This document shows positions 39,411 through 62,089 of a stretch of 64,000 bases of DNA, in pieces. Both the position numbers and the translations under genes were made by a program. Location: positions 2,407 through 66,406 of the forward strand of contig JBDKFZ010000012.1 of assembly GCA_039798445.1 (NCBI GenBank), written 5' to 3'. The first letter of the stretch is position 1. Each line of letters opens with the position of its first letter. The notes under the pieces were generated by a model. That model made no database searches and had not been told where the DNA came from. It saw nothing but the letters and a program-made list of their open reading frames with translations. This DNA is from Candidatus Parcubacteria bacterium. GTDB lineage: Bacteria > Patescibacteriota > Minisyncoccia > Phycocordibacterales > EsbW-18.

Positions 39411-39436
39411 TACGAAAATTGTAGCACGAGAAGCTA

Positions 39437-39548
39437 TTAGCAATTGGCAATTAAAAAACTCCAAATGTATGGCGCAGAGCGGAGTGGATCCGGGTTTTTC
39501 CGAGCCTGCGAGGACAAAACGCGGACCACGCAGCGAAGGTCATACCGC
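39437..39548 (-). repeat. repeat element A2 (inverted copy of A1) in the pilB-pilC intergenic region
   Basis: Aligns to the reverse complement of 26093..26201. Begins with gcaattggcaatt and ends near ggaccacgcagcgaagg. Confidence 0.85.
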
Positions 39549-39555
39549 GAGGTCC

Positions 39556-41310
39556 TTATTCCGTAACCACACGCAATACCTCTTCGAGCGTTGTGATGCC
39601 TTGTGCTGCTTTGAACACGCCGTCTTCGAGCATCGTCATCATGCCTTCGCTCTTTCCCTGTGCTTCGATAGCATCTCCAGTCGCACCTTTCATAATGAGC
39701 TCTTTGATCGTTGGTGTGATGCGCAACACTTCGTGAATACCAATGCGCCCCTTGTACCCATCTTCAACATCAGAACCTCCCTTTGGGCGATAGAAAGTGA
39801 CATCATCCCATTTCGCTCCCGTCTTGATGATCTTTTCAGACACGAGAAAACCGAGCATGCGGTCGAGATCGACACTCTTCCCGAGCGTCGCAAGCTCCGC
39901 TTTTGAAAGCGTGTATTCTTCTTTCTTCTCTTTTGCGAGAACGCGCACAAGTCGCTGACCGATTATCACCTTGATCGTCGAGACCAAGAGGAAGGGTTCA
40001 ACGCTCATGTCGAGCATACGAGGAATGGCACCAGAAGCCGAGTTCGTGTGAAGCGTCGAGAGCACCAAGTGACCAGTGAGCGATGCGTTCACCGCGAGTG
40101 ATGCGGTCTCGGTGTCACGAATTTCACCCACCATGATGATGTCTGGGTCTTGGCGGACGAGCGAACGAAGACCATTGCCGAACGTCATCCCAATCTCGGG
40201 CTTCACCTGTGTCTGATTGATGCGTGGCATCTGATACTCAACCGGATCTTCAATGGTCGAGATGTTAACGTCCGGCGTGTTGAGGATATCGAGCACGGTG
40301 TAGAGCGTTGTTGTTTTACCCGAACCAGTTGGTCCTGTCGTGAGAATCATTCCTGTCGACTGTTTCGTCGCCCAGTGAATCGCCTCGAGGCCTTCGCCAT
40401 GAAAACCAAGTGATTCCAGTGTGTATCCTCCCCCACCTTCACGAAGCACACGCATAACGGTTTTCTCACCGTAGTATGTCGGCAATGTCGACACACGGAA
40501 GCTCACTTTCTCACCGTCGAGATCAATCTTGAATCGACCGTCTTGTGGTAAGCGCTTCTCATCAAGCTTGAGGCTCGAAAGCACTTTGATGCGCGCAACA
40601 ATGCCCGGCGCCGCCTGCTTGGGCAATGTCATCGCGTCGTGCAACAGACCGTCGATACGATAACGGACCAAAAGCTCGCGCTCCATCGGTTCGATGTGAA
40701 TGTCAGATGCACCTTGGACAACGGCGTGTTTGATAAGCGTGTCGACGATGCGGACAATCGGGAGATCCTCGGCCATCTTCTTGAGATCCTCACTCGACGC
40801 TTCGGAGCCATCACCTTCGGTAATTGCAACAAGCGATGCCGCCTCGGTGCTAATAATATCGCCGAATTCTGCCTTGAGGCTCTTTTGATATTGAAGAAGG
40901 GCACGCTTCACCGACTCGGCATCAGTAAGTCGCGGAAGGATCGAAAGACCAGTCTTCTTTTTGACGAAGTCGATTGCCTGCAAGTCGCCAACATCGAGCA
41001 TCGCGACTTCAAGGCCGTGCGAACTCTTGCCGTAGGCGACGATATTGTGCGTGCGAGCGATCGGTTCAGGGATGAGCGAGAGGACCGCGAACTCAACCTT
41101 CTGCTCTTTGAGATCGACGAATGGAATACCGATGACGTGTGCCTTGGCACGACGGACATCGTCTTCGGACAGCGCACCTTCGGAAACGAGCGCTTCTTCG
41201 AGCGTTGTGTCGTTTTTCTCCGCAGCTTTCTCGATATCAGCGAGCTTCGCTTCGGTTACGAGGCGTGCATCGATGAGAAATTGTTTGAACTGTTCGGTAT
41301 CAACGCGCAT
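39556..41310 (-). CDS. pilB: type IV pilus assembly ATPase PilB (GspE family)
   Basis: Walker A GPTGSGKTTT, Asp box, His box, and N-terminal GSPII-like domain. ATG MRVDTEQFKQF at 41310. Confidence 0.9.
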   Translation of the reverse strand: MRVDTEQFKQFLIDARLVTEAKLADIEKAAEKNDTTLEEALVSEGALSEDDVRRAKAHVIGIPFVDLKEQKVEFAVLSLIPEPIARTHNIVAYGKSSHGLEVAMLDVGDLQAIDFVKKKTGLSILPRLTDAESVKRALLQYQKSLKAEFGDIISTEAASLVAITEGDGSEASSEDLKKMAEDLPIVRIVDTLIKHAVVQGASDIHIEPMERELLVRYRIDGLLHDAMTLPKQAAPGIVARIKVLSSLKLDEKRLPQDGRFKIDLDGEKVSFRVSTLPTYYGEKTVMRVLREGGGGYTLESLGFHGEGLEAIHWATKQSTGMILTTGPTGSGKTTTLYTVLDILNTPDVNISTIEDPVEYQMPRINQTQVKPEIGMTFGNGLRSLVRQDPDIIMVGEIRDTETASLAVNASLTGHLVLSTLHTNSASGAIPRMLDMSVEPFLLVSTIKVIIGQRLVRVLAKEKKEEYTLSKAELATLGKSVDLDRMLGFLVSEKIIKTGAKWDDVTFYRPKGGSDVEDGYKGRIGIHEVLRITPTIKELIMKGATGDAIEAQGKSEGMMTMLEDGVFKAAQGITTLEEVLRVVTE

Positions 41311-41376
41311 ATCTTTGCGCTTTATTGTATCAGTTCTACAAAAAAGAGAACGTGAATAAAAACGAGATATGAAAAA

Positions 41377-41406
41377 GGCCTGTGCACCGTAGTGGTACAC
41401 AGAGCC
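41377..41406 (-). terminator. rho-independent terminator after the GC-rich hypothetical gene, upstream of pilB
   Basis: ggcctgtgcacc-gtagt-ggtacacagagcc followed by tttttcat on the minus strand. Confidence 0.55.
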
Positions 41407-41494
41407 TCCATCGTACAACCGATGGTGTGTTGGGCAGTAGTGCCCGAAACAAAGCGAGAACGTTCACGCGGGATGCAAGGGTCGGAGCCTCGTA

Positions 41495-46637: not shown

Positions 46638-49600
46638 CTAAAGACTATTTACGTATGCCCTCGTTACCGGCCCAAAGAATCCTACAGCAGGAGTGATACC
46701 GACAGGTGCTTGGTATTCAGCCAAAGCTGCTTGTGTAAGAGGTCCAAAGAAGCCTGTGGCTCCGTTTGAGGCGAGCGATTGTGCTGCGGGTCCCTTGTTC
46801 TGTGTCATGAGGAAGAGCTGGAGCTGGAGGACATCGTCCCCTTGTGCACCGAGATCGAGGTCACGGGTGTAGAGGTTGGATGTTGTCGTTGGAGTGCCGA
46901 GGAATGCGAGCATTGCTGGTGACGGGGTGCCGCCTTGTGCGATGAATTGGGTAATGAGGGTGCGGAGAAGGGTGAGAAGGTCGGAGCTTCCGCCTGTTGT
47001 TCCTGAACCACCGCCGCGACGATGAGATGAGCTTCCTCCCCCGTCTTCTTCCTCTTCATCATCGGCTGGCGGGGTTTCTTCTTCAACAACCTCTTCCCAA
47101 ACGAAGACGTCCGTCGAACTATTTGTATCACCCGTAACAAGGTTTGTTGCGTCAGAAACAAAACCTATGATTAAACCGTCATTTGAAATTGCTGGGCTGT
47201 CTGAATATCCACTCCCATCAGAGTTCGACGAGCCCTCAGTTATGTACAGCAATGTGTCTGTTGTACGGTCATATCGATAGACACCCGCATAGTCCCCCTC
47301 TCCATCATCCGTAGTTTGACCGAACGCAACATAGCGACCATCGGCAGAAATGACAGGTGCGTAAGAGGAGTCAGCGTCATCATTTGTAATACGTTCCATC
47401 ACTCCTGTCTCCCTATCAAGCACGAATACATCTTGAACGCCCTCTGTATCATCAGAAACTAGATTGTCTGCGTTGGATGAAAACGCAACATAGCGACCAT
47501 CGGCAGAAATTGCCACACCTCCTCCCGCGATATCACTATTTCCCTCCTCGTCCAAGTCATTTTTATCAACCATCTCCACAGTATCCGCATCTCTGTCATA
47601 CACATACAGGTGGTTATATCCTTCAATGGCTTCCGGCACAAGCAGACCACTCGTACTAAAGGTCACAAAGTTCCCGTTGCCTGATATTCGGACGGCACCT
47701 TGAACGTTTTCTGTGTTTTCTCCTCCTTCATCATCAAGACTCACCCGTTCAATAGTATCGGTGTCACGATCGTAGACAAAAGCATCACTTCTGCTATTTG
47801 TATCATCCGTAACAAGGTTTGTCGCATCGGAGTAAAAAGCGACATAACGACCATCGTTAGAAAGAATAGGATCATATGAAGCCCCATCCCCTTCCTGACC
47901 AAGGTCATTGAGACTTACGCGCTCAACCGTATCAGTGTCACGATCGTACACAAAAACATCGAAGGTATCATTGGTGTCATCGGGGATAAGGTTCGTCGTA
48001 GCTGAACGAAAAGCTACATACCTACCGTCAGATGAGATGCTCGGGGTCTGTGAATTACTGTCTCCTTCCTCACCAAGGTCGCTCACACTTACCCGTTCAA
48101 TGGTGTCTAAATCACGATCGTAGACAAAGACATCGTCCCATCCGTTTGTGTCATCCGAAACAAGATTGGTTGCTCCTGAACTAAAGACGACATACCTGCC
48201 ATCTGTCGAAAGGGAAACATTGAATCCTGTGGAATCGCCCTCTTCACCTTCGTTGTTTACGTTCACACGTTCAAAATCAAGTGCGGGTGGTGCTGGAACA
48301 TCTTGTACCGTAAAGTTCCATGTTGTTTCGTCCGCAATTCCAACATACGAGTTACCAGTACCATCCACAAAAGCTCCCTCGTCAATTAGCAGGTAATACG
48401 CCGTGGCATATTCAAGATCGACGTCTTGATATATGTAGACGTTTTCATCCTCGGCCTCAAGAGCATCGGCATCCGTCACGTCAAAAGTGGCGACAGTGCT
48501 GTCATCAGAAACTTTTTTAAGGGTTATGTTTCCTGTTCCAACAACGACATCTTGATCAAAAACAATCGTTGGGGTACCTCCCGAAAAAACAGTTATCGAA
48601 ACGTCTTCAGCATCATCTGCGGGTGAAAACGTTTCGACCACAGGAGGTGCATCTGTCGTAAAACTCCACTGTGTTTCATCCGAAATCCCAACAAACGGAG
48701 CGCCCCCATCATCTTCGATTGCTCCTGTATCAATGAGCACGTAATATTCTGTTGCCTCTTCGAGATCCGCATCTAAATCAATCTCCAACGTTGTAGTATC
48801 GGAGAGCGTAGCTTTTGGACCGGCAACATCTACTGTTTCGACCAGACTATCGTCGCTTGCTTTGTGAATTGTTATATTTCCCGTTGTTGTCGCAATGTCT
48901 TTATTAAAAACAAGAGTGAGGTTTGTGCCTACAACAACCTCTCTGGCGTTGTCTGAAGGTGTAAAACTGTCTAATACAATTGGCTCTGGTGTTACATACA
49001 ACCCACCCTCGACAGTAGCAACAATAAGATTCGAGCCGTCGGCGTCTGAAGCAACAGCCTGCCAAGCATAGCTATTGACACCTCCCGGCTGTTCTTCAAA
49101 CCACGTATCTCCACCGTCGTCAGAAGAATGTAGACTTCCTCCATTTACCCCCGCAAGCAAATTTGTACCAGTATCATCGGAAGCAACTGACCCCCAACCT
49201 TCAGTCGGAAAACCTGTGGGTTGACGCTCCATCCAGTTTGCACCACCATCACTTGATGTATATACAAGAGTGTTTCCTCCGGCAACGATGAGATTCGAAC
49301 CATCGGCGTCGGAGGCAACCTTGTCCCAGTTTTTTTCGGTGTCACCGGCAGGTCGACGCTCTACCCATGTATCTCCTCCATCGTCGGAGACATAAATAAA
49401 CCCATTAAACGTACCGATAATGAGCACAGAACCATCCGCATCTGAATCAACAGATATGATATTTATCTGTGTCGAAGTTGCAGTATGTTCTTCCCATGTA
49501 TCTCCGCCGTCGAAAGACGTATAGATAGTACTAGTTGCGCTTGTAACAGCGGCGAGATTCGAGCCATCGGCGTCTGAAGCAATACCCGTCCAATATTCAA

Positions 49601-49970
49601 CTGCACCACTGCTTGGATCAAGTGCGCTCCACGTCTCTCCACTATCCTCTGATCTATAGAGAAGGCCTGAGGCCCCGCCCCCTACAAGTAAGTTGGTTCC
49701 AGTAGAGTCTGATTTGACACTACGTGCTCCGTTCCCTGATGGACCCACAAGGTGTTCGGCCCATATTCCCCCAAAGTCGTGTGAAATGAAAATACTATTT
49801 GTTGAATTTCCTGCAATAAGATTTGAACCGTCGGCGTCTGAGGCAACAGCTCTCCATGCAGTTGAGGCATCTGTAGTAAACCATTCGTGAGATGCAGCAA
49901 ACACCGGCGTCACTTGGAGGAGAAGTGCGACGGTTGCGAGAGTTGCAGCGAATTTGCGGAGTAGTTTCAT
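46638..49970 (-). CDS. giant secreted surface protein P4 (about 1110 aa): signal peptide, BNR/Asp-box-like propeller, Big_5-like Ig domains, PD40-like repeats, shared C-terminal module, peptidoglycan-binding domain
   Basis: Likely start MKLLRKFAATLATVALLLQVTPVFA at 49970. Tail EEEEDGGGSSSHRRGGGSG...LLTLLRTLITQFIAQGGTPSPAMLAFLG...YTRDLDLGAQGDDVLQLQLFLMTQNKGPAAQSLASNGATGFFGPLTQAALAEYQAPVGITPAVGFFGPVTRAYVNSL. Confidence 0.85.
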   Translation of the reverse strand: MKLLRKFAATLATVALLLQVTPVFAASHEWFTTDASTAWRAVASDADGSNLIAGNSTNSIFISHDFGGIWAEHLVGPSGNGARSVKSDSTGTNLLVGGGASGLLYRSEDSGETWSALDPSSGAVEYWTGIASDADGSNLAAVTSATSTIYTSFDGGDTWEEHTATSTQINIISVDSDADGSVLIIGTFNGFIYVSDDGGDTWVERRPAGDTEKNWDKVASDADGSNLIVAGGNTLVYTSSDGGANWMERQPTGFPTEGWGSVASDDTGTNLLAGVNGGSLHSSDDGGDTWFEEQPGGVNSYAWQAVASDADGSNLIVATVEGGLYVTPEPIVLDSFTPSDNAREVVVGTNLTLVFNKDIATTTGNITIHKASDDSLVETVDVAGPKATLSDTTTLEIDLDADLEEATEYYVLIDTGAIEDDGGAPFVGISDETQWSFTTDAPPVVETFSPADDAEDVSITVFSGGTPTIVFDQDVVVGTGNITLKKVSDDSTVATFDVTDADALEAEDENVYIYQDVDLEYATAYYLLIDEGAFVDGTGNSYVGIADETTWNFTVQDVPAPPALDFERVNVNNEGEEGDSTGFNVSLSTDGRYVVFSSGATNLVSDDTNGWDDVFVYDRDLDTIERVSVSDLGEEGDSNSQTPSISSDGRYVAFRSATTNLIPDDTNDTFDVFVYDRDTDTVERVSLNDLGQEGDGASYDPILSNDGRYVAFYSDATNLVTDDTNSRSDAFVYDRDTDTIERVSLDDEGGENTENVQGAVRISGNGNFVTFSTSGLLVPEAIEGYNHLYVYDRDADTVEMVDKNDLDEEGNSDIAGGGVAISADGRYVAFSSNADNLVSDDTEGVQDVFVLDRETGVMERITNDDADSSYAPVISADGRYVAFGQTTDDGEGDYAGVYRYDRTTDTLLYITEGSSNSDGSGYSDSPAISNDGLIIGFVSDATNLVTGDTNSSTDVFVWEEVVEEETPPADDEEEEDGGGSSSHRRGGGSGTTGGSSDLLTLLRTLITQFIAQGGTPSPAMLAFLGTPTTTSNLYTRDLDLGAQGDDVLQLQLFLMTQNKGPAAQSLASNGATGFFGPLTQAALAEYQAPVGITPAVGFFGPVTRAYVNSL

Positions 49971-49998
49971 GTAATGGGAGCTAAAAACAATATCAAAA

Positions 49999-50010
49999 GT
50001 ATACCAAAAA
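49999..50010 (-). promoter_or_regulatory. extended -10 box TGGTATACT upstream of P4
   Basis: Minus strand reads gggtttttGGTATACTtttgatatt, about 30 nt upstream of ATG 49970. Confidence 0.4.
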
Positions 50011-50043
50011 CCCCTCAACTCTTTGGTTTTTGGGGATTACTCT

Positions 50044-53000
50044 CTAGAGTCCATTAATATGCGCCCTCGTCACTGGTCCAAAGTACCCTGCTGCTGGGGT
50101 GATGCCGACAGATAGCTGGTATTCAGCAAGAGCCGCTTGGGTGAGAGGTCCAAAAAGGCCTGTGGCTCCAACGACTGCAAGTGCTTGAGCCTGTGGTCCT
50201 TTGTTTTGAGCGATGAGGAAGAGTTGGAGTGCTGTTACGTCAGAGCCTTCGCTGTTGATGTCGAGATCGCGGGTGTATGTGCCTCCTGTAGTTGCTGGAG
50301 CACCAAGGAATGCGAGCATCGCTGGTGATGGGGTGCCACCTTGTGCGATGAATTGGGTGATGAGGGAGCGGAGGAGAGCAAGAAGATCTTGTGATGTGCC
50401 GCCTGAAGCAGGAGCAACTCCACGTCCTCGGTGAGAAGAGCTGCTGCCTCCCCCACTGTCGCCGTTGTCGTCATCATCGTCATCGTCACCAGAAGGAATC
50501 TCGTCTTCAATCAGTGTGTAGATAGCCAGTCCACCCGTGAAGGCTCCGCCGGCATAGAGTTCAGACTGGTCTGGCGAAAGAATGAGAGTGTTAACAGAAC
50601 TATCGATATCATCCACAGAAGGGCTGAAATCGCTTACCTCACCCGTCGCACTATTTACACTAGCGATTCTGAGTCGATCCAAACCATCGATTTGAGTGAA
50701 GTCACCACCAACGTAAAGAGTTGATCCATCGGAACTCAAATCGAGCCCTCGCACAGTGCTGTCGGGGTTAGGAGCAAAAGCGGTGGCAATACTATCGGCA
50801 ATGGTAAACTCTGCGAGATAATTACGTGTGGCATCTCCCCCGTTTACATCTCCAAAGTCTCCACCGGCAAAAACGGTTGATTCATCAAGAGAGAGCTTGA
50901 GAGCCCTCACTGTGCCATCAACATCCGGATTGAATGCTGTTACTGCACCATCTGCAGTTGTAAATGATGCAAGACGGCTGCGAGAGGCGGCACCGTTGTT
51001 GACTGTCGTGAACGCTCCTCCGGCATAGAGAACTGATTCGTCTGCAGAAAGCTCGAGAGAATTCACTGTCGAGCTCATATTCGGGTTGAATGCCGTCACA
51101 ACACCGTCCACCGTTGTGAATGCAGCGATACGCCTGCGCGATGTGCCTCCATTCACCGTCTGGAAGCTTCCTCCTGCATAGAGGATGCTGTCATCAGAAG
51201 AGAGCTTGAGGGCGTTCACCGTGCTGGCCATATTCGGATTAAACGCTGTTACAACTCCGTCCACGGTCGTAAACGCAGCAAGACGGTTTCGAGTTGTTCC
51301 AAGACACCCCCCTTCACCATCAAATATCCCATTTACACAGATAAACGTCCCGCCAACATAGAGCGTTAGTCCATCAGAAGAGAGTGCCAGCGCATTAACG
51401 GTATTGTTTATATCTGGATCAAAAGGCAAAAGAGTGTACGACGAGAGATCAATTGCGGCTACGTTATGACGAGTAGAAGCACCCGCCGCGGTGAAACTAC
51501 CACCGATATAAACGACACCATCCGCGACATCCGCCGCAGCCACACCTCCGTTCAGAGCAGGATCAAAATCTGTAACATTACTTGTAGCTAAATCAAACTC
51601 AGCAAATCCAGCTCGAGGTATATCACCATTCACCGTAGTCAGCTCTCCTACCGCATACAGCGTCAAACCATCCGAAGAAAAATCCATTCCACTTACTCTC
51701 CCTCCAGTAATATCAGGATCGAAATCAGTAGCGATACTAGTTGTTACATCAACAGCCGCAACTCCATTTCGGATTGTCCCCCCATTCACATCTCCAAACG
51801 TACCTCCAACATAAAGCGTCTCTCCATCAGGAGAAAGGAGAAGAGAGTACACACTGCCGTTAACGTTGGGGTCAAAATCAGTAGCGATACCCGTTGTAGC
51901 ATCAACAGCTGCGACACCGTTCCGCTCGACATATTCTGAAAGACTAAATGATCCACCGATATACAGTGCTGTACCATCTACGGCAATCTCAGAAATTCCT
52001 GAGTTTGAACCTGTAAAACCCGGGTCAAAATCAGTGACTAACGATGTTGTCGTATCAAACGCCGCGATACCAAGTCGCTCAACGTCATCATTTACCATGC
52101 TTATATTTCCTCCGACATACACCAGAGAACCGTCTTCCGAAAGGGCAATACTTGTTACAGAGTCGAACTCACTAATACCGGCGTCAAAACTCGTTACCGT
52201 TCCTGTCGTTGCATCGAATGCAGCAAGACGATTGCGTGTAGTTCCGCCATTCACTGTACTGAAATACCCTCCCGCATACACCACCGATCCATCTACGGCT
52301 ATTTCGTTAATCGTATCATTAACATTGGGGTTGAAAGCAGTTACCTCTCCTGTCGTTGCATCAAACGATGCAAATCTGTTGCGTGTTGTGTCTCCATTCA
52401 CTTCAGTAAAATCTCCGCTGATGTATACGACTGAACCTGCGAGCACCATACTACTACCAGCTTGGAATGAGTCTCCAAGATCTGGATCAAAAGAAGTCGC
52501 AACGCTGGTATCTGTGTCAAAAGCCGCTGCTCCATGTCGAGTCGTTGCTCCGTTTACCGTCTGGAAGTTTCCTGTCACGTACAAAGTTCCATCATCGGGA
52601 GAAAGTGCAATAGCATTAGCGCCCCCTTCTATGTTTGGATCAAAGTCTGTAGCAACACCTGTTTCTGTGTAGAAAGCGGCAACTTTATTTCGAGTGGTTG
52701 CGCCCCCGTTAACCGTAGAGAAGTATCCTCCCGCGTACAAAATCTCTCCATCCGAAGAAAGCGCCAATGAAATCACTGAGCTATCCAAATCTGGATCAAA
52801 GTTGGGGTCGACAGTGCCATCTGCGAGTATGTGGGCTAGACGATTACGCGCGGTGTTTTGAGCGGTCAAATTTGTAAAGTTTCCTCCGACATACCAACCG
52901 CCGTCTCCATCAGAAACAGCGACCGCCGGGTTGCCCCCATTGACTGTCGGCAACAAACTTTTTTGTTCGGCAGTCGTATCAAAAATGAATTCTTGAGCAT

Positions 53001-55470
53001 ACGTATAATTGTTTACTGAGGTCATGTTTGGTCCTCCCATGTACACCACACCATCGTCATACGCCAATGCCACACCGGCACTTGAATTAGGTGCTGGGTC
53101 AAAATCCAAGACCTCCGAGGTATCAGTATCAAATGCGGCAACGCGTCTACGTGGATACGCCCCGACATTACTGATGGAGCCAGAGATAAAGAGGATTGTA
53201 TCGTCTGGTGACAATACTAAGGCACGCACGGCACCGTCTGGGTCAGGTATGTCAAAATCTGTTGCCACGCCCGTCTCTGTGTCAAACGCGGCGACACCGC
53301 CACGCGAGACTTCTTCATTGTTTACATAACTAAAACCTCCACCTGCATAGAGAATAGAACCATCAGAAGAAAGAACGAGAGATTCAACGGTGGCATTTAC
53401 ATTCGGGTCAAAACCTTCATCAACAGTTCCCAGGCTCGTGATATGCGCAATATTATTGCGATCTGTTCCTCCAACAGATGTAAACGTTCCTCCGATATAC
53501 CAACCACCATCTCCATCAGAAACAACTACTGAAACTTGTCCTTCTACTTCGGGAAAAGTACTAACCGCTGCCTGTGTTGTTTCGTCAAATGGTATACCAC
53601 CACCCGTTGTGCCTCCACCCACAGCAAAGTCAAAGTTTCCACCAACGTAGAGTGTTGTGCCGTCAGTAACAACGGCGTTTATTGGTCCGTCAAATGAAAC
53701 TCGATTCTTAAGTTCATCAAGAACAGCATCTGGTGGTGGTGCAGCTTGGGTCGTAAAATTCCACGTTGTTTCATCTGCAATTCCTCCATACGCGTTTCCG
53801 TTTTCATCTTCGAGCGCTCCCGCATCGATGGTGAAGTAATACTCCGTTCCATATTCAAGGGCTCCCGTTTCCGGATATAGGTAGACAGTACTACCCCCAG
53901 CCTCTACAGCATCTCCGTCCGTAACATCAAAGGTTTCAACCGTACTATCATCAGAAACCTTTTTAAGAGTTATGTTTCCACTTCCTACAACCATGCTCTG
54001 ATTAAACTCGATAGTAACGTTCTCCTCTGCAAGAAATTCTATTGCAATATTTTCTGCATCATTTGCAGGTGAAAAACTGACAACAACAGGGGCTGTGTCG
54101 GTCGTAAAACTCCATGCCGTTGGATCAGAAATACCTGCAAATGCGTTACCGACAAGGTCTTCAATCGCACCTGCATCTATAAGAACGTAATACCCAGTCG
54201 CTACGTCTAATATCGTAGTGGGATCAATCGTGAGATCTGTACCAGAAACCGTTACCTTGGGACCAGCTACATCTATTGTTTCAATAAGCGAATCATCGCT
54301 TGTTTTATATAGCTCAATAGAACCCGTTGAAGTGGCAATGTCTTCGTTAAAAGTAATCGAGAAGGTTCCATCAACGGCAACTTCTGTTGCTTCGTCTGTG
54401 GGGTCAAACGATAGAACAAAAGGGCCCGTGTTGTCAGGAGCTAAAAAGAAAGCACCGTAACTAGCAAAAGCGATATGGGTTCCATCGGCGTCGGAAGCAG
54501 CGAAGCTTGCTGAGACTTGTCTGTTTCCTCCAGGATTCTCTTCTAACCACGTTTCACCGCTATCCTCGGAAGAAAAAAATCTTGGGGAACCACCATCGTT
54601 GCCGTATACAAACAAATTTGATCCACTTGCATCTGATGTGCCCGCTCCCCAATATACGCCAACATCCCCTGCTGGCTGACGTTCTGTCCAATCCACCCCT
54701 CCGTTTGAAGATGTATAAATACGTCCACTACCACCTGCACCCACAATAAGATTAGATCCATCGGCGTCTGAGGCAGCTATGTTCCATGCTTTACCAACAT
54801 CTCCCGCCGGCTGACGTTCTGTCCAATTGGCACCGCTGTCGCTTGATGTATATACACGACCAGAACCAATATAAGCATCAGCAAAAGTATCAACAACAAG
54901 AAGATTTGAACCATCTGCGTCCGAGGCAACAACATTCCAATCCCTATCAACATCCCCTGCTGGCTGACGTTCTGTCCAATCAACTCCTCCGTTTGAAGAT
55001 GTATAAAGACGTCTACCGCCCGCAGCTACAATAAGATTAGAGCCATCCGCATCTGAGGCAGCAGCGCGCCAGTAGTTGTCAATATCACCCGCTGGCTGAC
55101 GTTCTGTCCAATCAACTCCTCCGTTTGAAGATGTATAAAGACGACCAGAGTACACGCCCGCAACTAAATTGGAACCGTCGGCATCTGATGCTACCGGCCT
55201 CCATTGCTGGTCCTGAGCCCCACCCGGCTGACGTGCTGTCCAATTGGCACCGCTGTCGTCTGATACGTAGATATATCCCGAGCCATCAGCAAGAATGAGA
55301 TTCGATCCGTCGGCGTCTAATGCAACACCGTTAAAAGCGATCTGGTCGTTAGTAGCCGCGCCTGTCGGTCGAGGCTCACCCCACGTGTGTTCTGCAGCAA
55401 ACACTGGCGTCACCTGAAAGACCAGGCTGAGAATTGCGAAGGCGGCGACGCATTTGCGTAGGAGTTTCAT
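50044..55470 (-). CDS. giant secreted surface protein P5 (1808 aa): signal peptide, BNR-like propeller, Big_5-like Ig domains, about 25 delta-60-like repeats, shared C-terminal module, peptidoglycan-binding domain (mosaic of both subfamilies)
   Basis: MKLLRKCVAAFAILSLVFQVTPVFA signal. N-terminus like P4, central repeats like P2/P3. Tail DDDDDDDNGDSGGGSSSSHRGRG...LLALLRSLITQFIAQGGTPSPAMLAFLG...PGBD. Confidence 0.85.
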   Translation of the reverse strand: MKLLRKCVAAFAILSLVFQVTPVFAAEHTWGEPRPTGAATNDQIAFNGVALDADGSNLILADGSGYIYVSDDSGANWTARQPGGAQDQQWRPVASDADGSNLVAGVYSGRLYTSSNGGVDWTERQPAGDIDNYWRAAASDADGSNLIVAAGGRRLYTSSNGGVDWTERQPAGDVDRDWNVVASDADGSNLLVVDTFADAYIGSGRVYTSSDSGANWTERQPAGDVGKAWNIAASDADGSNLIVGAGGSGRIYTSSNGGVDWTERQPAGDVGVYWGAGTSDASGSNLFVYGNDGGSPRFFSSEDSGETWLEENPGGNRQVSASFAASDADGTHIAFASYGAFFLAPDNTGPFVLSFDPTDEATEVAVDGTFSITFNEDIATSTGSIELYKTSDDSLIETIDVAGPKVTVSGTDLTIDPTTILDVATGYYVLIDAGAIEDLVGNAFAGISDPTAWSFTTDTAPVVVSFSPANDAENIAIEFLAEENVTIEFNQSMVVGSGNITLKKVSDDSTVETFDVTDGDAVEAGGSTVYLYPETGALEYGTEYYFTIDAGALEDENGNAYGGIADETTWNFTTQAAPPPDAVLDELKNRVSFDGPINAVVTDGTTLYVGGNFDFAVGGGTTGGGIPFDETTQAAVSTFPEVEGQVSVVVSDGDGGWYIGGTFTSVGGTDRNNIAHITSLGTVDEGFDPNVNATVESLVLSSDGSILYAGGGFSYVNNEEVSRGGVAAFDTETGVATDFDIPDPDGAVRALVLSPDDTILFISGSISNVGAYPRRRVAAFDTDTSEVLDFDPAPNSSAGVALAYDDGVVYMGGPNMTSVNNYTYAQEFIFDTTAEQKSLLPTVNGGNPAVAVSDGDGGWYVGGNFTNLTAQNTARNRLAHILADGTVDPNFDPDLDSSVISLALSSDGEILYAGGYFSTVNGGATTRNKVAAFYTETGVATDFDPNIEGGANAIALSPDDGTLYVTGNFQTVNGATTRHGAAAFDTDTSVATSFDPDLGDSFQAGSSMVLAGSVVYISGDFTEVNGDTTRNRFASFDATTGEVTAFNPNVNDTINEIAVDGSVVYAGGYFSTVNGGTTRNRLAAFDATTGTVTSFDAGISEFDSVTSIALSEDGSLVYVGGNISMVNDDVERLGIAAFDTTTSLVTDFDPGFTGSNSGISEIAVDGTALYIGGSFSLSEYVERNGVAAVDATTGIATDFDPNVNGSVYSLLLSPDGETLYVGGTFGDVNGGTIRNGVAAVDVTTSIATDFDPDITGGRVSGMDFSSDGLTLYAVGELTTVNGDIPRAGFAEFDLATSNVTDFDPALNGGVAAADVADGVVYIGGSFTAAGASTRHNVAAIDLSSYTLLPFDPDINNTVNALALSSDGLTLYVGGTFICVNGIFDGEGGCLGTTRNRLAAFTTVDGVVTAFNPNMASTVNALKLSSDDSILYAGGSFQTVNGGTSRRRIAAFTTVDGVVTAFNPNMSSTVNSLELSADESVLYAGGAFTTVNNGAASRSRLASFTTADGAVTAFNPDVDGTVRALKLSLDESTVFAGGDFGDVNGGDATRNYLAEFTIADSIATAFAPNPDSTVRGLDLSSDGSTLYVGGDFTQIDGLDRLRIASVNSATGEVSDFSPSVDDIDSSVNTLILSPDQSELYAGGAFTGGLAIYTLIEDEIPSGDDDDDDDNGDSGGGSSSSHRGRGVAPASGGTSQDLLALLRSLITQFIAQGGTPSPAMLAFLGAPATTGGTYTRDLDINSEGSDVTALQLFLIAQNKGPQAQALAVVGATGLFGPLTQAALAEYQLSVGITPAAGYFGPVTRAHINGL

Positions 55471-55501
55471 AAAATAAATGGAGGTTAATTACAATATCAA
55501 A

Positions 55502-55515
55502 AGTATACCAAAAAA
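55502..55515 (-). promoter_or_regulatory. extended -10 box TGGTATACT upstream of P5
   Basis: Minus strand reads gggttttttGGTATACTtttgatattg, about 32 nt upstream of ATG 55470. Confidence 0.4.
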
Positions 55516-55547
55516 CCCTCGACTGTCTGAGTTTTTTGGGGATTCTG

Positions 55548-57587
55548 TTAGAGAGTATTGAAATGCCCTCGTGTTACTGGTCCAAAATAGCCTGTTGCTG
55601 GGAAAATACCCACAGATGCTTGGAATTCAGCAAGAGCTGCTTGTGTAAGAGATCCAAAGAAGCCTGTTGCTCCGTTTGCTGCCAGTGCTTGAGCCTGCGG
55701 GCCCTTCTTTTGCTGTATAAGAGCTGCTTGAAGAGCGGTAACGTCTGAACCTGAAGAACCAATATCAAGATCACGGGTATATGTACCTGTTGTTGGTGTA
55801 GTCGTAGGAAGTGTCGATACATCGAGTGCAAGAACAGTGAGCATACCCTGCGAAGGCACCCCGCCGAGGAGGATGTACTGCGAAATAAGATCTTTGAGCT
55901 TGATGATAATCGTTTGATATGTGCTTCCTCCAATGTGAGGCGGCGCTGTCTGACCGTCTTCAGACGAGGTATCGCTTTTTCTACTGCTACTTCCTCCACC
56001 ACCACCGCCACCTCCCCCACCACTATCTTCTTCCTCTTCTTCCTCACAGGCTGAAGTCGTCACTGTTCGGTGGGAACCATATGAAAGCCCTCCTAGCACA
56101 TTCGATGCCCACGCCTTGAAGTGGTACGTCGTCTCACACTCAAGAGAAGAGAGCGTCGTAGAAAAGGTTCCCGTCGAAAAAGTGCCTTCTTCGGTCGTCG
56201 TCGCCCCATACGAGACCGACAGACCATAGGCAAATCCACGGAGGTTCGGATCTTGGCCACCCGTCGTAGCGATATTGCCGTTGAGCGTCACTTCGGTCTG
56301 TCCGATCCCCGATGCGGGGACCGTTATCACACCGGGAGCATCGGCTTCGGGCACATCTTCGAGTTCGACGGTAATGGTTCCCGTACCCGCAGTAGAAAGC
56401 CACCAATCATCCATCACCTCAATCACAAGCTCGAATGATGGGTTCGTTTCAAAATCGATGGCTTCTTCAGTGTTGACGCTAATGGCCCCCGTGTCCGCAT
56501 CGATTGCGAATGCACTATCTGTGTTACCCGAGAGAATGGAGTACGTTAGGGTGTTCCCGCCCAATGCGTCAGTTGCTGTTGTTGTCCCCACAAATGTTCC
56601 ATTGGCACTGTTCTCCATGAGGGAGAACGTCTCATCGGTAACTTCTGGTGTCTCGTTGAACACATCAAAACAGGAAAGATCATACGTAGACATCTGATAC
56701 CCGCCATCATTACCAAGCGTGGCAATTGAGCTGTTGATCGCATCTATATACGCTCCGTAGAAAGGACCGTAGCCAACTCCTGTTACCGTGAGCGCGAGAA
56801 TCGGCTGATTATTGATGAAGAAAAAACCCGGCTGTCCGGAATCCCCGTTGACTTGCGCTTCATAGAAATCAAAGCGGGTCGACGGTGCGTCGGGAGTAAA
56901 GTGATTAAAGTACACATGCTCATTAGCTAAACCTATTGCATAATTAATTTCCTGAATGCTTGCTTTTGCCTCCTGATCAAACAAGAGGAATGGGAACTGT
57001 GGTTCTGAAAGATAACGATCCAACTCCAATTTCGAAATCGCAGGATAAAAAGCTATCGAAGGTGGGACGTCAGAATCAAGCACACCGAGCTGTACATCTT
57101 CTCCTGCATCGGGCTGAAACACCACTGACATCTGCGCTTGAAGCGTACGCGTTGCAACAGAGTTATCATCCGCAACAAAAACAACGGTTGATCCGTTAGT
57201 TATTGGAAAATGTTTTGCAAAAACAATGTGACGAGGAGAAATAAGAACCCCAGCACGTCTAAAGTCCAAGTTGGAGTTCCATGGAGACGCACCTGACAAA
57301 TCCAGTGGAGCATCTCCCTCCGTTATCCATGCCGTTGAGCTTCGTGTCCACGGGTCTGTCGCATTTCCTCTGGTTGAGAAGATTTTCTTGGTGCTGTCGT
57401 TGGCTGTCAGACCATCAATACGATAATCGACCTCATGGTTCAGTTCTGCGACAAGATCCGTCGAAAAAAGATCTTCACAACTTGAAGGCACAAATACCTC
57501 AGCAAAAATGACATGTGGAACAAGGAAACCACTCAGCGCGATCGTGCCCACAAGGAGTCTTTGTGCCTTTAAAAAGAAGGTGGGCAT
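55548..57587 (-). CDS. secreted surface protein P6 (679 aa): signal peptide, trypsin-like serine-peptidase domain, cadherin-like/Ig-like region, poly-Gly linker, peptidoglycan-binding domain
   Basis: His in VLISPRHIVFAKHF, Asp in DVQLGVLDSDV, Ser in VNGDSGQPGF (a GDSGxP motif). Tail EEEEEDSGGGGGGGGGGSSSRKSD...IIIKLKDLISQYILLGGVPSQGMLTVLA...YTRDLDIGSSGSDVTALQAALIQQKKGPQAQALAANGATGFFGSLTQAALAEFQASVGIFPATGYFGPVTRGHFNTL. Confidence 0.7.
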   Translation of the reverse strand: MPTFFLKAQRLLVGTIALSGFLVPHVIFAEVFVPSSCEDLFSTDLVAELNHEVDYRIDGLTANDSTKKIFSTRGNATDPWTRSSTAWITEGDAPLDLSGASPWNSNLDFRRAGVLISPRHIVFAKHFPITNGSTVVFVADDNSVATRTLQAQMSVVFQPDAGEDVQLGVLDSDVPPSIAFYPAISKLELDRYLSEPQFPFLLFDQEAKASIQEINYAIGLANEHVYFNHFTPDAPSTRFDFYEAQVNGDSGQPGFFFINNQPILALTVTGVGYGPFYGAYIDAINSSIATLGNDGGYQMSTYDLSCFDVFNETPEVTDETFSLMENSANGTFVGTTTATDALGGNTLTYSILSGNTDSAFAIDADTGAISVNTEEAIDFETNPSFELVIEVMDDWWLSTAGTGTITVELEDVPEADAPGVITVPASGIGQTEVTLNGNIATTGGQDPNLRGFAYGLSVSYGATTTEEGTFSTGTFSTTLSSLECETTYHFKAWASNVLGGLSYGSHRTVTTSACEEEEEEDSGGGGGGGGGGSSSRKSDTSSEDGQTAPPHIGGSTYQTIIIKLKDLISQYILLGGVPSQGMLTVLALDVSTLPTTTPTTGTYTRDLDIGSSGSDVTALQAALIQQKKGPQAQALAANGATGFFGSLTQAALAEFQASVGIFPATGYFGPVTRGHFNTL

Positions 57588-57602
57588 GACTTCAGAGCCC
57601 TC

Positions 57603-57614
57603 AGTATAGCAAAA
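57603..57614 (-). promoter_or_regulatory. extended -10-like box TGCTATACT upstream of P6
   Basis: Minus strand reads ggttttGCTATACTgagggc, 18 nt upstream of ATG 57587, directly after the P7 terminator hairpin. Confidence 0.35.
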
Positions 57615-57634
57615 CCACGGATTTCCGTGGTTTT
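57611..57634 (-). terminator. rho-independent terminator after P7
   Basis: aaaaccacgg-atttc-cgtggtttt. Confidence 0.65.
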
Positions 57635-57658: not shown

Positions 57659-60310
57659 CTACAACCCGTTCACGTACGCTCTCGTTACCGGCCCAAAGAA
57701 TCCTACGGCAGGTGTGATGCCGACAGATGCTTGGTATTCAACCAAAGCTGCTTGTGTCAGTGGTCCAAAAAAGCCCGTGGCACCGTTTGCTGCGAGTGAT
57801 TGTGCTGCAGGGCCTTTGTTTTGTGCGATGAGGAAGAGTTGGAGTTGGAGGACGTCGTCACCTTGTGAGCCAATGTCGAGATCACGGGTGTAAAGGTTAG
57901 ATGTTGTTGGAGTGCCGAGGAATGCGAGCATCGCTGGTGACGGGGTGCCGCCTTGTGCGATGAACTCTACAATTAAACTCCTCAATGTTTCAAAGAGATC
58001 GGTGTCCTCGCGGAATGACGGCGGGTTACTGATGGGTTTTCGATGGGTGCTACCTCCCCCACCACCGCCGCCGCTGTTATCGTCATCTGGCTCTTCCTCA
58101 TCTTCAACACCTTCGTCCCACACAAACACATCACGATCATCATTTGTATCGCTTTCAACAAGATCAGTTGCGTCTGAAGCAAAGGCGACAACATGACCGT
58201 CTCCTGAAACAGAACCTCCATTTCCACCGACGAGTGAATTCTCTGTTATGTGAAGAAGTGTATCTGATTCTCTATCGTAACGGAAAATGTTGTTCGTCTG
58301 TCCCTCTCCACCATCTGTAGATCTTGTAAAAACAACATACCGCCCATCTGAAGAAATGCTCGGTTTACCGGTGCTCTCCTCATCATCGTCAATCAATCGA
58401 TCAATAGTGTCGGTGTCGCGATCATAGACAAAAACTCCCCATTTGGTACTGGTGTCTCCTGAAACAAGATTTGTGGCATCAGAGGCAAAAGCTATATAAC
58501 GCCCATCAGATGAGAGAGCAATTTCCTGTCTCGCGTCGTTGTTTCCTTCCACCCCTTCGTCTGACACGCTCACACGTTCGATGGTTTCTCCCACACGATC
58601 GTACACAAACACATCATTCCTACCGTTCGTGTCGTCCACAACAAGGTCCGTAGAAGCTGAGACAAGAACGACATGTGTGCCATCTTTCGAGATTACCCCG
58701 AGGCGAGATTGCCCATCAGATCCCGACGTGATGTTGGTTTCTGTGTCGAGCTCTCGATCGTGGAGAATGATGTCATATCTCCCATCGCTATCTAGGCGTT
58801 GCGTATAGACCACATAGCGTCCATCATCAGAAATAGATGGCGACTCAAAGGAGTCTCCAGACACCCCATCTGTATTTACCTGTTCAATACTACCGAGCGT
58901 CCTGTCATAGAGAAAAATGTCGACTGAACCAGATATGTTGTCCGTTAAGTTCTCCGCAGCTGACGAAAAAACAACATACCTACCGTCTGAAGAAATATAC
59001 GGACTGATCGAGTGTCCATCCCCTTCTTCTCCTGCTATATTCGCACTCGCGAGTTCGATGGTATCCGTATCGCGATCGTAGACGAAGATATCCCGGCTGT
59101 CATTGGTATCTTCCAAAACAAGATTCGTAGCGTCTGACTCAAAGACGATATACCTACCATCTTCAGAAAGCTGTGGGGGTAGGTTCGCCGAGTCACCGTC
59201 CGCCTCCTCCCCCTCATCGTTTACACTCACGCGCTCAAATTCAAACGTTGGGGGTGGTAGCGTTGTAAAATTCCATGTCGTTTCGTCAGCGATACCCGTA
59301 AATCCAACGATTGCTGTGCTATCGATGGTAAAATAATAATCCGTACTCCTCTCCAAATCGACTGCTGGATGCAATGTCAACGTAGCGTTAGAAATAGTGA
59401 CCTCCTCTTCGACGCTCACATCAAACGTATCTACAACGCTGTCATCACTCGCTTTGTAGAGAGTTATATTCCCTGTTCCACCATAAATATTCTTATCAAA
59501 TTCTATTGTATAACTATCTAAAACAATCGAGACACCTGTTTCACCATCGGCAGGATTAAGCGTCACAATCGCTGGGGCGGCCTCCGTGGTGAAATTCCAT
59601 GTTGTTTCGTCAGTGATGCCGGCGAAAGGAACTATCGCACCCACATCAATGAGAATGTAGTATTCCGTTGCTGGTTCAAAGAGATCTAGGCGTGAAAAAT
59701 ACACTCCTTGATTTTCTACTGTCACCTCTTCGTCATTAGTTATGTCCCACGTTTCAACAATACTGTCATCGCTCGCTTTATAAAGCGTTATATTGCCCGT
59801 GTCCGTGTAAACCAGCCCATCAAAATAAATAGAAACGGGATCCTCCGGATTCAAGGAAGCATCTATCGCATCGTCCCCTGGTGAAAGTGAGTCGATTCCG
59901 CGTGGTGTATCATATGCATCTGTTGTAAAGCTCCAAGTCGTTTCGTCAGAAATACCTGCAAAGTCAACTATTGCCCCTGCGTCGATTTGAAAATAATATT
60001 CTGTACTCGTTGCAAGATCAGTATCGATGAGTACATAGACAACCACTCCAGAAAAATTTGCCTCCTCAGGGTCAGTGACATCGAGCGTCTCGACTACGCT
60101 ATCATCGCTCGCTTTGTAGAGCGTTATGTTTCCTGTTCCCGCAACTATTGCTTCATCAAAAATAAGATAATATGCCTGTTGGTCATTGAATATTGTCGTA
60201 TTAACTGCATCATCTTCAGGAGACAGGTTTGTTACTACGGCCGCCTGCGCAAAAAGGGGCAGGCAAGCCGAAATAAGAAAAAGAAACGACGCTAGGAGGA
60301 ATCTCCTCAT
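57659..60310 (-). CDS. giant secreted surface protein P7 (883 aa): signal peptide, about 4 Big_5-like Ig domains, about 7 PD40-like repeats, shared C-terminal module, peptidoglycan-binding domain
   Basis: MRRFLLASFLFLISACLPLFAQA signal, Ig units ending ETTWSFTT / ETTWNFTT. Tail GGGGGGGSTHRKPISNPPSFREDTDLFETLRSLIVEFIAQGGTPSPAMLAFLG...YTRDLDIGSQGDDVLQLQLFLIAQNKGPAAQSLAANGATGFFGPLTQAALVEYQASVGITPAVGFFGPVTRAYVNGL. Confidence 0.85.
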   Translation of the reverse strand: MRRFLLASFLFLISACLPLFAQAAVVTNLSPEDDAVNTTIFNDQQAYYLIFDEAIVAGTGNITLYKASDDSVVETLDVTDPEEANFSGVVVYVLIDTDLATSTEYYFQIDAGAIVDFAGISDETTWSFTTDAYDTPRGIDSLSPGDDAIDASLNPEDPVSIYFDGLVYTDTGNITLYKASDDSIVETWDITNDEEVTVENQGVYFSRLDLFEPATEYYILIDVGAIVPFAGITDETTWNFTTEAAPAIVTLNPADGETGVSIVLDSYTIEFDKNIYGGTGNITLYKASDDSVVDTFDVSVEEEVTISNATLTLHPAVDLERSTDYYFTIDSTAIVGFTGIADETTWNFTTLPPPTFEFERVSVNDEGEEADGDSANLPPQLSEDGRYIVFESDATNLVLEDTNDSRDIFVYDRDTDTIELASANIAGEEGDGHSISPYISSDGRYVVFSSAAENLTDNISGSVDIFLYDRTLGSIEQVNTDGVSGDSFESPSISDDGRYVVYTQRLDSDGRYDIILHDRELDTETNITSGSDGQSRLGVISKDGTHVVLVSASTDLVVDDTNGRNDVFVYDRVGETIERVSVSDEGVEGNNDARQEIALSSDGRYIAFASDATNLVSGDTSTKWGVFVYDRDTDTIDRLIDDDEESTGKPSISSDGRYVVFTRSTDGGEGQTNNIFRYDRESDTLLHITENSLVGGNGGSVSGDGHVVAFASDATDLVESDTNDDRDVFVWDEGVEDEEEPDDDNSGGGGGGGSTHRKPISNPPSFREDTDLFETLRSLIVEFIAQGGTPSPAMLAFLGTPTTSNLYTRDLDIGSQGDDVLQLQLFLIAQNKGPAAQSLAANGATGFFGPLTQAALVEYQASVGITPAVGFFGPVTRAYVNGL

Positions 60311-60317: not shown

Positions 60318-60325
60318 GTATATCA
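60318..60325 (-). promoter_or_regulatory. -10 box TATACT 6 nt upstream of the P7 ATG (possible leaderless mRNA)
   Basis: Minus strand reads ctgaTATACTaaaatcATG. Confidence 0.3.
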
Positions 60326-60389: not shown

Positions 60390-60698
60390 TTGAGGGGCAT
60401 ATACTTGGTTCATATGGATCAGAAGAAAGCTCTAACAATGGATGTGCTCAAAGCCCTGGTTGTAGTTATATCCGGAGCCGCACTCGTCTCGCACTACAGC
60501 GCTTCAAATCCTTCGAGCGCGTTATCAAACGAGCCGCGCCCCGAAATCGTTCGTCAGGGCGAACAACTCGGTACGCCCCGATCTTTTGTCTGTGCGAAAG
60601 ATTCTTTGGCTCAGGACGAGAATGATGTTTTGGCGATGGAATACAGCAATACAAAAACAGTGGACTGCATGTTCGTAGGCTGTGGAGGTATCTTCTAG
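60390..60698 (+). CDS. hypothetical small secreted Cys-containing protein (low confidence)
   Basis: 102-aa ORF with a signal-like segment MDVLKALVVVISGAALVSHYSA. Converges on and overlaps the next gene by 4 nt. No domain. Confidence 0.3.
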   Translation: MRGIYLVHMDQKKALTMDVLKALVVVISGAALVSHYSASNPSSALSNEPRPEIVRQGEQLGTPRSFVCAKDSLAQDENDVLAMEYSNTKTVDCMFVGCGGIF

Positions 60699-62089
60699 TT
60701 AACAATAGACTCTAAGAACTCTTTTTGATTTATAAAAGAGTCTTTTATCTCTTTTTCTGAGTACCCCGCCTTCTGCAATTCACTCAATCGTAGAAACGGG
60801 AATCGTACCTGCATCGCCATCAGTTCTTTCTCCGTCATCATGTAGGTGAGTGTGTCGTCTATCCTCCAAACAGACTGCGCATACGGCATGTAGAGCAACG
60901 AATACGCAGACCTCGTTGTGTGTAAGAATCCCGGAGAGATGACGAAATTGCTCTCTACTCGTTGAGACATCTCTAAGATGTCAGTGAACAGAGCCACGGA
61001 ATTGAGCGCCGGAGCGATTACACCAAACTGATTTTCCATGAGGCTTTCATATTCTGCGGATGTCGTAGCGATGTCGTGTGTATCGAGAAAATCAAGGGTC
61101 ATTATCCTGGGATAAAACGTCAGGTTGGTGCATTCATACGTAACGGCCTCTGGCTGACTATAAAAAGGAAGTCCCCTTTCCCTCAATCGCACACTGATGA
61201 GATCCCTGTCTGTTGGTGACAAAATACGAAAATAGCTTTCATCAACCAACTTCGGGATGAATACTCTTTTATCATCAATGGAGCCGTAAACGGCATAGAG
61301 CGAATGTGGCGAACCTCTCCAACAGGAAGAGGGAGCGAGATACGGCCCACTCACCTCTTGTTCTATTCGTATAAAAGGTAGATTCTCTCGAATCGTTTTA
61401 CTATTCGTATCTGTATCGTCTACTTTCTGGACTTCGCGCGATAGATCATCGCGATTTCGAACAATCTCTCGAATATCACAACCTCTATTCTCCAGGAGAC
61501 ACTTTTTACGTCGTGCTATCTCCTCTTTGAGTGTGAGGCCGTTCTTATATATCTTCTCGAAATCTTTTTGGACGATCTCCTCGGATGTCCCGCTCTCGAT
61601 GAAGAAATAATAGCGAGGATCCGCTGTTGGGGCTTGCGCTTCTATCTTTGCAAATGCATCCAAGGTCGAAGAAGCTGATTCGATGTAGGCATCTGCGGCT
61701 TCTTCATATGTATCCAAGAGCCCTTTTGCCTTGTTTGAGTCCGGGTCATGAAAAAAATCTTCCGTCAGCACAGCTATCTCCGGAAGTGCGCTCAAGAATC
61801 TGCTTGGAAAAAGTTCGTACTCTCTGAGAATTCCCACGTACTCAGAGAACCTTTTGTCTTTTCTGTTCTCTATAGTCCCAATGACGGTGTCGCGTAGTCT
61901 CTTTTCTGAAAAAGCTATCTCGTCTACAGCACCTCCGAAATCATCGTCCATGAAGGGCGAATACAGGAGCGGGTCTTCTTTGGTTATTTTCTCAAAAGCT
62001 TCCAGCCCTGGAGCGGTTTTGTGAGCAGATGAGAACCAGACTACGCCACCGACGATTACAAGAAATGCGACGATGATGGTATTTCTCAT
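60695..62089 (-). CDS. hypothetical protein with N-terminal TM anchor (464 aa)
   Basis: MRNTIIVAFLVIVGGVVWFSS anchor, then a large soluble domain with no recognisable motif. ATGA overlap with the upstream ligase gene. Confidence 0.6.
   Translation of the reverse strand: MRNTIIVAFLVIVGGVVWFSSAHKTAPGLEAFEKITKEDPLLYSPFMDDDFGGAVDEIAFSEKRLRDTVIGTIENRKDKRFSEYVGILREYELFPSRFLSALPEIAVLTEDFFHDPDSNKAKGLLDTYEEAADAYIESASSTLDAFAKIEAQAPTADPRYYFFIESGTSEEIVQKDFEKIYKNGLTLKEEIARRKKCLLENRGCDIREIVRNRDDLSREVQKVDDTDTNSKTIRENLPFIRIEQEVSGPYLAPSSCWRGSPHSLYAVYGSIDDKRVFIPKLVDESYFRILSPTDRDLISVRLRERGLPFYSQPEAVTYECTNLTFYPRIMTLDFLDTHDIATTSAEYESLMENQFGVIAPALNSVALFTDILEMSQRVESNFVISPGFLHTTRSAYSLLYMPYAQSVWRIDDTLTYMMTEKELMAMQVRFPFLRLSELQKAGYSEKEIKDSFINQKEFLESIVN

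Follow-up and report, generated by a model that had tools for sequence, protein, structure and literature searches.

Lactococcal PrtP and streptococcal C5a peptidase are Gram-positive, wall-attached multidomain serine proteases that contain fn3/Ig-like spacers and act on extracellular or host proteins. These cell-envelope proteinases have a subtilisin fold (S8) and are held covalently through LPXTG/sortase. The SPATE/Hap autotransporters of Gram-negative bacteria (Hbp 3ak5, Pet 4om9, Hap 3syj) combine a β-helix stalk with an outer-membrane β-barrel anchor. Among the bacteria of the Candidate Phyla Radiation (CPR), highly expressed extracellular proteins with peptidoglycan-binding domain (PGBD), Ig-like and PKD modules were reported in Ca. 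Paceibacteria, and a role at the host interface was proposed for them (Kuroda et al., 2024; PMC10936435). Here, we analysed a 64,000-nucleotide stretch of a Candidatus Parcubacteria genome (contig JBDKFZ010000012.1, positions 2,407 to 66,406; hereafter the window) and the protein P6 encoded in it, which was also called on JGI contig Ga0485267_0000068. As judged from a structure model and sequence comparisons, the N-terminal domain of P6 has a chymotrypsin fold, belongs to clan PA and is under selection to keep its catalytic triad intact. This conclusion is drawn from its homologue family, the invariant columns of that family, the AlphaFold2 model and its Foldseek matches, the profile-profile alignment to trypsin and the conservation in 106 further sequences. 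We consider it probable, at roughly 0.7, that P6 is an active, surface-displayed serine endopeptidase.

P6 resembles the Gram-positive cell-envelope proteinases in its predicted wall attachment, its multidomain build and its fn3/Ig-like spacers, but differs from them in its chymotrypsin fold and in the non-covalent PGBD that would attach it. Compared with the SPATE/Hap proteins, the stalk of P6 consists of cadherin and Ig-like repeats, the predicted anchor is a non-covalent PG_binding_1 domain, and the organism is a CPR bacterium. The likeness to the Paceibacteria proteins of Kuroda et al. (2024) is one of modules: both are extracellular CPR proteins with PGBD and Ig-like parts, whereas no protease domain was reported there.

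The homologue search covered 5.8 billion proteins and returned 50 homologues of the N-terminal domain (phmmer, E down to 1e-77), all 50 of them unnamed and without a Pfam domain over the protease region. In a 42-sequence alignment, the only invariant columns were L115, S117, H126, D164, L170, D249 and S250 (full-protein numbering). The family motifs around these columns are LISPRHIVFAxH, DIxVGVLDSDVP and GDSGNP, to which SPWNS is added. P6 is a full-length domain match to this unnamed S1-like family, with the motifs LISPRH..AxH, DIxVGxLDSDVP, GDSGNP and SPWNS. The first-pass annotation of the window, made by reading the sequence, had proposed a triad in S1-like order from short motifs, and all of the quoted motifs are present: VLISPRHIVFAKHF at aa 114-127, DVQLGVLDSDV at aa 164-174 and VNGDSGQPGF at aa 246-255, together with DFETNPSFELVIEVMDD at aa 378-394, inside the cadherin segment. 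The His and Asp motifs each hold several candidate residues, and H126, the second His, and D164, the first Asp, proved to be the equivalents of the catalytic ones.

For a second conservation set, another 106 unique sequences of the domain were taken from 35 genomic and 70 viral loci. Asp164 is kept throughout both sets (42/42 and 106/106), His126 in 42/42 and 105/106, the one exception being cut by a contig end, and Ser250 in 42/42 and 104/106, where both exceptions are likewise cut by contig ends. Among the homologous domains examined, all that are complete (42 + 103) carry the whole triad. The oxyanion-hole motif reads NGDSGQP in P6, with Gly248 corresponding to Gly193 and Asp249 to Asp194; of the 106 further sequences, 91 keep G248, 99 keep D249, 104 keep S250, 98 keep G251 and 102 keep P253.

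An AlphaFold2 model of aa 30-310, built on the 42-sequence alignment, reached a mean predicted local distance difference test (pLDDT) score of 94.1 and a predicted template modelling (pTM) score of 0.92. A Foldseek search of the model against the PDB gave 1028 matches at E≤1e-3, with trypsin, factor Xa/IXa, complement factor D and granzyme at the top. In BFVD, the first match was an uncharacterised Caudovirales protein (E 3.9e-19), and viral proteases of the trypsin-like and 3C-like types ranked next. The nearest solved structures are the earthworm fibrinolytic enzyme 1ym0, thrombin, activated protein C, elastase, the Streptomyces trypsins 2fmj/5dj7 and the V8/Glu endopeptidases 1qy6/6q12. The two six-stranded β-barrels that define clan PA are thus present in the predicted domain. 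An S74, subtilisin or SGNH-type phage enzyme was excluded by the unambiguous chymotrypsin-like fold.

For the sequence-level comparison, four reference S1 sequences served as alignment targets only. With hhalign, positions 47-262 of the family profile aligned to trypsin 1-223 at E 5.5e-6; with the 106-sequence profile the value was 5.7e-7, against 0.64-0.95 for reversed-sequence decoys. The alignment pairs H126 with His57, D164 with Asp102 (DVQLGVL against DIMLIKL) and S250 with Ser195, which, together with the invariance in the family, bears out the proposed triad order. His126 also falls on His57 in HMMER alignments to uPA, chymotrypsinogen C and plasminogen. When the family hidden Markov model (HMM) was searched against PDB sequences, 23 of the 24 sub-threshold matches (E~1) were S1 proteases, aligned over the TAAH and GDSGGP segments. 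The secondary structure of the model agrees with these alignments, as His lies after strand 91-94, Asp before strand 137-141 and GDSG before strand 224-229; the structure prediction named as a check in the first-pass annotation gave a very confident model whose strand order is consistent with the placement of the triad. A chance motif pattern was ruled out, because the motifs are invariant across the family and reversed decoys score poorly.

Family S1 of MEROPS clan PA is the natural reference for this domain, but the identity to it is only 13-17%, and only profile-profile comparison gives a significant sequence-level similarity. The P6 family starts with a conserved N-terminal extension of ~46 residues (SPWNS) where S1 has the Ile16 activation N-terminus, it lacks the S1-type disulfides, and its nearly invariant Arg119, His120 and LDSDVP are without an S1 counterpart. 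The residue aligned to specificity position 189 is Ala244 in P6 and Thr, Glu or Asp elsewhere in the family, while position 226 is a conserved Gly274 and position 216 a Thr, all in a low-confidence region of the alignment. Direct family searches are silent on the protease reading. The first-pass annotation had named the lack of a peptidase-family hit as a reason to give up its proposal, and no match of Trypsin (PF00089) or Trypsin_2 (PF13365) to P6 was found at E≤1; nor did aa 1-310 match any entry, peptidase or other, in Pfam, NCBIfam or PDB sequences, even at E≤1-10. Across 42 homologues, Pfam gave a single Trypsin match at E 0.074 and two DUF316 matches at E 0.005. The term 'trypsin-like' refers here to the fold and carries no claim of a basic P1 specificity. 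At the sequence level, the domain is best treated as a separate, previously unmodelled family within clan PA, since its predicted fold and catalytic residues are those of the clan and the Trypsin/Trypsin_2 similarity expected of S1 is absent. The family has no model in Pfam, NCBIfam or PHROGs, and no description of it was found in the literature searched.

From the domain order, the fold and the conserved triad, we infer how P6 may be displayed, anchored and used. The predicted signal peptide would export the protein via Sec; its n-region is basic, its core is hydrophobic and its cleavage site is A-x-A-like. The domain that follows would be a very divergent double-β-barrel protease head with a His126-Asp164-Ser250 triad and a GDSG oxyanion-hole motif. 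The cadherin repeat and the Ig/fn3-like sandwich may serve as a rigid spacer and, together with the linker, form a stalk, in which the acidic/poly-Gly part would be flexible and possibly wall-spanning. The helix and PG_binding_1 would then hold P6 non-covalently on the peptidoglycan of its own cell, as presumed for the β-propeller 'adhesin-like' paralogs. The protease head would thus come to lie at the distal end and be able to cut extracellular proteins, most plausibly those on the surface of a partner or host cell, or in the environment, of an episymbiotic CPR bacterium.

The supporting modules were identified with differing clarity. The first-pass description of a cadherin/Ig-like segment was upheld for the cadherin part, which scores 51.2 bits against a Pfam gathering cut-off of 28.8 and matches repeats of CELSR1, FAT4 and cadherin-23 in the PDB sequence search. 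For the Ig/fn3-like part (aa ~420-514) the matches were weak: the NCBIfam BT0360 N-terminal region at E 7.8e-4 and PDB fn3/Ig chains at E 0.2-0.6, with an fn3 match at the equivalent position of the homologue P0139. PG_binding_1 scores 28.0 bits against a gathering cut-off of 23, and the binding itself is predicted.

Searching 1.84 billion cluster representatives (50% identity clusters) with the family HMM gave 4807 clusters at E≤1e-3, 1735 of them at E≤1e-30. The nearest relative of P6 is an 84%-identical ortholog of identical architecture in a Patescibacteria metagenome-assembled genome (MAG; locus L002), where the gene again adjoins one for a PGBD-tailed propeller protein. Ten long homologues with the S1-like domain at the N-terminus were sampled: PG_binding_1 forms the C-terminus of all 10, and in 9 of the 10 cadherin repeats directly follow the protease domain; the modules between are Calx-beta, PKD, fn3, SWM or a DUF5122 propeller. 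The protease-PGBD fusion recurs in Parcubacteria (L005), Nomurabacteria (L003) and Saccharibacteria (L033, with the PGBD at the N-terminus), and the flanking genes of P6-type genes vary among CPR loci. In P6-type proteins of other CPR clusters, a poly-Gly and Ser/Arg/Lys-rich stretch ahead of the PGBD is general, and one homologue has a transmembrane anchor in place of the PGBD. A Cys37/Cys306 pair, which joins the domain termini, co-occurs only in the CPR subgroup that includes P6. On sequence, P6 is a clear, architecturally typical CPR member of the family.

Several members depart from this architecture. In the Nomurabacteria MAG (L003), the S1-like domain (5908-6864) and two cadherin repeats with the PGBD (6810-7802) lie in overlapping open reading frames (ORFs) of different frames, which is probably a frameshift or assembly error that divides a P6-type gene. 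Two tandem S1-like domains are present in P0051, in the 901-aa ORF of L066 and in the giant P0052 (4782 aa). In P0145 and P0151, from other organisms, an S1-like domain is joined to a DUF5122 β-propeller and SWM repeats in one polypeptide, and both DUF5122 and SWM occur in the neighbours of P6; such fusions suggest that the protease and the propeller proteins may be functionally linked.

The family extends well beyond the CPR. On viral contigs from IMG/VR, which are up to 340 kb long, 95 family matches were confirmed by tblastn (L038-L116), and many others lie in MAGs of Verrucomicrobiota, Kiritimatiellia, Lentisphaerales and Planctomycetota. The phage members, represented by UniProt A0A6J7XEP5 of an uncultured Caudovirales phage (the first BFVD match, TMq 0.77), share 28-41% identity and the same triad with P6 and would likewise occupy an extracellular, distal position. 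In contrast to P6, the phage and Planctomycetota-Verrucomicrobiota-Chlamydiota (PVC) proteins are usually ~400 aa long, have a Big_2-like part at the N-terminus and the domain at the C-terminus, stand in a tail-fibre context and lack the Cys pair, the cadherin repeat and the PGBD. On the Phycisphaerae contig L012, the family gene (5596-6765) has a tape-measure gene on one side and a tail-fibre-like gene on the other. At 18 viral loci, 106 neighbouring genes of the same orientation were scanned; the PHROG families that recurred among them were nearly all tail fibre, tail assembly, minor tail and collagen-like tail proteins, and Pfam Mtd_N (major tropism determinant) was found in 10 of them. Cultured and GenBank phages contain essentially no member, with one weak match to a hypothetical protein of an uncultured phage, and no PHROGs family covers the phage homologues. 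Of the side results of the analysis, this association with phage tail-fibre modules is the most interesting.

P6 lies among genes for proteins with a similar C-terminus. The co-directional flanking genes 46638-50018, 50044-55470 and 57659-60310, as well as 14185-18000, encode a P6-like tail with an acidic run, poly-Gly, S[ST]HR[KR], a helix and a PGBD, which agrees with the earlier claim that P6 shares its tail (with SSSRK at the basic site) with adhesin-like paralogs. The bodies of these neighbours consist of Big_5, PD40, BNR/Sortilin and DUF5122/Rax2 propeller modules.

The constant fusion to PG_binding_1 in four CPR lineages, at either terminus, invites a reading in which the PGBD targets the substrate and the P6 domain is a peptidoglycan-peptide endopeptidase, that is, a bacteriolytic S1-fold enzyme like α-lytic protease that would remodel the cell's own wall or breach that of the host and, in phages, act as a virion-associated lysin. 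Lysobacter α-lytic-type S1 enzymes lyse cell walls, one homologue is annotated as 'peptidoglycan hydrolase-like protein with peptidoglycan-binding domain', and the family is present in phage tail regions. However, we read the PGBD as an anchor, and judged substrate targeting less likely, because non-enzymatic β-propeller/Big_5 paralogs carry the same tail and a transmembrane anchor can replace it. In addition, the long stalk would keep the head off the wall, which argues against an own-wall substrate, and the phage homologues lack a PGBD and lie among tail-fibre/Mtd-type receptor-binding genes, not at tape-measure/hub lysin positions. A peptidoglycan endopeptidase is therefore unlikely. The position of P6 within a four-gene co-directional array of motif-sharing proteins raises the alternative of a maturation or shedding protease that would cut the co-encoded PGBD-tailed proteins, and perhaps itself, at S[ST]HR[KR] after the poly-Gly; cleavage of the neighbours at SHR[KR] had been suggested in the first-pass annotation. 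The paralog beside the L002 ortholog, the 'Rosetta-stone' fusions P0145 and P0151 with the DUF5122 propeller of the neighbours, and a conserved Glu (E243, 82/106) near the S1 pocket position in the alignment are in its favour. We nevertheless consider it quite improbable. Elsewhere in the CPR the gene neighbourhood is not conserved, and that of L005 consists of housekeeping genes; SHR[KR] in its exact form is specific to this organism, whereas other CPR tails have just poly-Gly and Ser/Arg; the phage members are without such substrates; and at the alignment position of Asp189 P6 has an Ala, with varying residues in the family.

A protease fold can also serve as a catalytically dead binding module, as in HGF, haptoglobin and the trypsin-like domain of UmbA in umbrella toxin particles, and the P6 domain would then be an adhesin head or a receptor-binding tip. 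The strict conservation of His, Asp and Ser, together with Asp194 and GDSG-P, down to ~28% identity to P6 would be unexpected without catalytic selection and makes this highly improbable. Within the preferred reading of P6 as an active surface endopeptidase, the parallel between phage fibre and CPR stalk suggests, by analogy, a common way of attacking proteinaceous cell surfaces. The family might then be a 'surface-breaching' protease of tailed phages, with the head at the distal end of a short tail fibre, and of episymbiotic CPR bacteria, with the head on a wall-anchored stalk, that degrades proteinaceous surface layers or receptors of the target cell. We regard this wider proposal as doubtful; if it is true, the family would be the protein-directed counterpart of the glycan depolymerase tailspikes. 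To our knowledge, proteolytic virion-associated enzymes are rarely described, and hardly any such counterpart of the tailspikes is on record for phages.

Should the domain prove active, it would define a large family of clan-PA serine peptidases, with at least 4800 clusters at 50% identity, that Pfam, NCBIfam and PHROGs have missed. Genome pipelines label its members only as 'cadherin domain-containing protein [Candidatus Paceibacterota]' or 'peptidoglycan-binding protein', and none of the source names of the homologues is that of a peptidase; a family HMM would better annotate thousands of metagenomic proteins. The host-interaction machinery of the CPR/Patescibacteria is poorly known, and P6, if active, would be a concrete, testable surface-enzyme candidate beside adhesin-like proteins. 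For phage biology, the family points to a possible virion-associated protease in receptor-binding modules.

Table 1. Positions in the window of the P6 gene, its encoded parts and the DNA directly upstream.
Feature	Position	Strand	Basis
P6 coding sequence (679 aa + stop codon, ATG start)	55548..57587	(-)	ORF list
Putative signal peptide, Sec-type, aa 1-29 (cleavage between MPTFFLKAQRLLVGTIALSGFLVPHVIFA and EV)	57501..57587	(-)	Inferred by eye from sequence
Chymotrypsin-fold (clan PA, S1-like) serine peptidase domain, predicted, aa 30-310	56658..57500	(-)	
His126 (CAT), catalytic His57 equivalent	57210..57212	(-)	hhalign, HMMER alignments, family invariance
Asp164 (GAT), catalytic Asp102 equivalent	57096..57098	(-)	hhalign, family invariance
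Ser250 (TCC) in GDSGQP, catalytic Ser195 equivalent	56838..56840	(-)	Alignment to GDSGGP, family invariance
Cadherin repeat, aa 320-409	56361..56630	(-)	Pfam PF00028, E 1.7e-13
Possible Ig/fn3-like β-sandwich, aa ~420-514	56046..56330	(-)	Weak matches
Linker EEEEEED + Gly10 + SSSRK, aa 515-537	55977..56045	(-)	Read from sequence
Helix-like segment of shared tail, aa 556-588	55824..55922	(-)	Conservation with paralog tails; helix inferred
PG_binding_1 domain, aa 602-679	55551..55784	(-)	Pfam PF01471, match aa 612-673, E 2.5e-6
Intergenic hairpin upstream of P6, AAAACCACGG-AAAT-CCGTGGTTTT, then TATACT -10-like box	57603..57634	(-)	Read from sequence; function inferred
Ribosome-binding site of P6, GAGGG	57598-57602	(-)	Read from sequence

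In every intergenic spacer of the surface-protein array, a TATACT -10-like box stands shortly before the next gene and is itself preceded by a hairpin. Besides the spacer ahead of P6, a similar hairpin with TATACT lies downstream of the gene within 55471-55547 (55501-55540), and another at ~60318-60325, on the (-) strand. The order of these elements suggests that the array genes may be individually terminated and re-initiated transcription units.

Two further large paralogs on the (-) strand, 8193-11267 and 11373-14135, are variants with a truncated anchor: they carry the acidic/Gly/SHR[KR]/helix tail (…LQLKLIELLKQLLQELI…) and end right after the helix, without PG_binding_1. Directly after the poly-Gly, a sub-motif [ST]H[RQ]KP[IL]xxxPxF[HR]xDT is shared by the products of 11373-14135, 14185-18000 and 57659-60310 and of the gene 7993-11907 at L002. 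No Pfam model matches it, and it could be a recognition, processing or modification site. A 464-aa ORF without a Pfam match (60695-62089, (-)) lies directly upstream of the array. At ~15 kb from the array, the region 36318-41418 (-) holds type IV pilus/type II secretion system (T2SS) genes, for a T2SSE ATPase and a T2SSF platform protein, together with a gene for a CarboxypepD_reg protein; the presence of the pilus/T2SS genes near the array fits the lifestyle of a CPR episymbiont.

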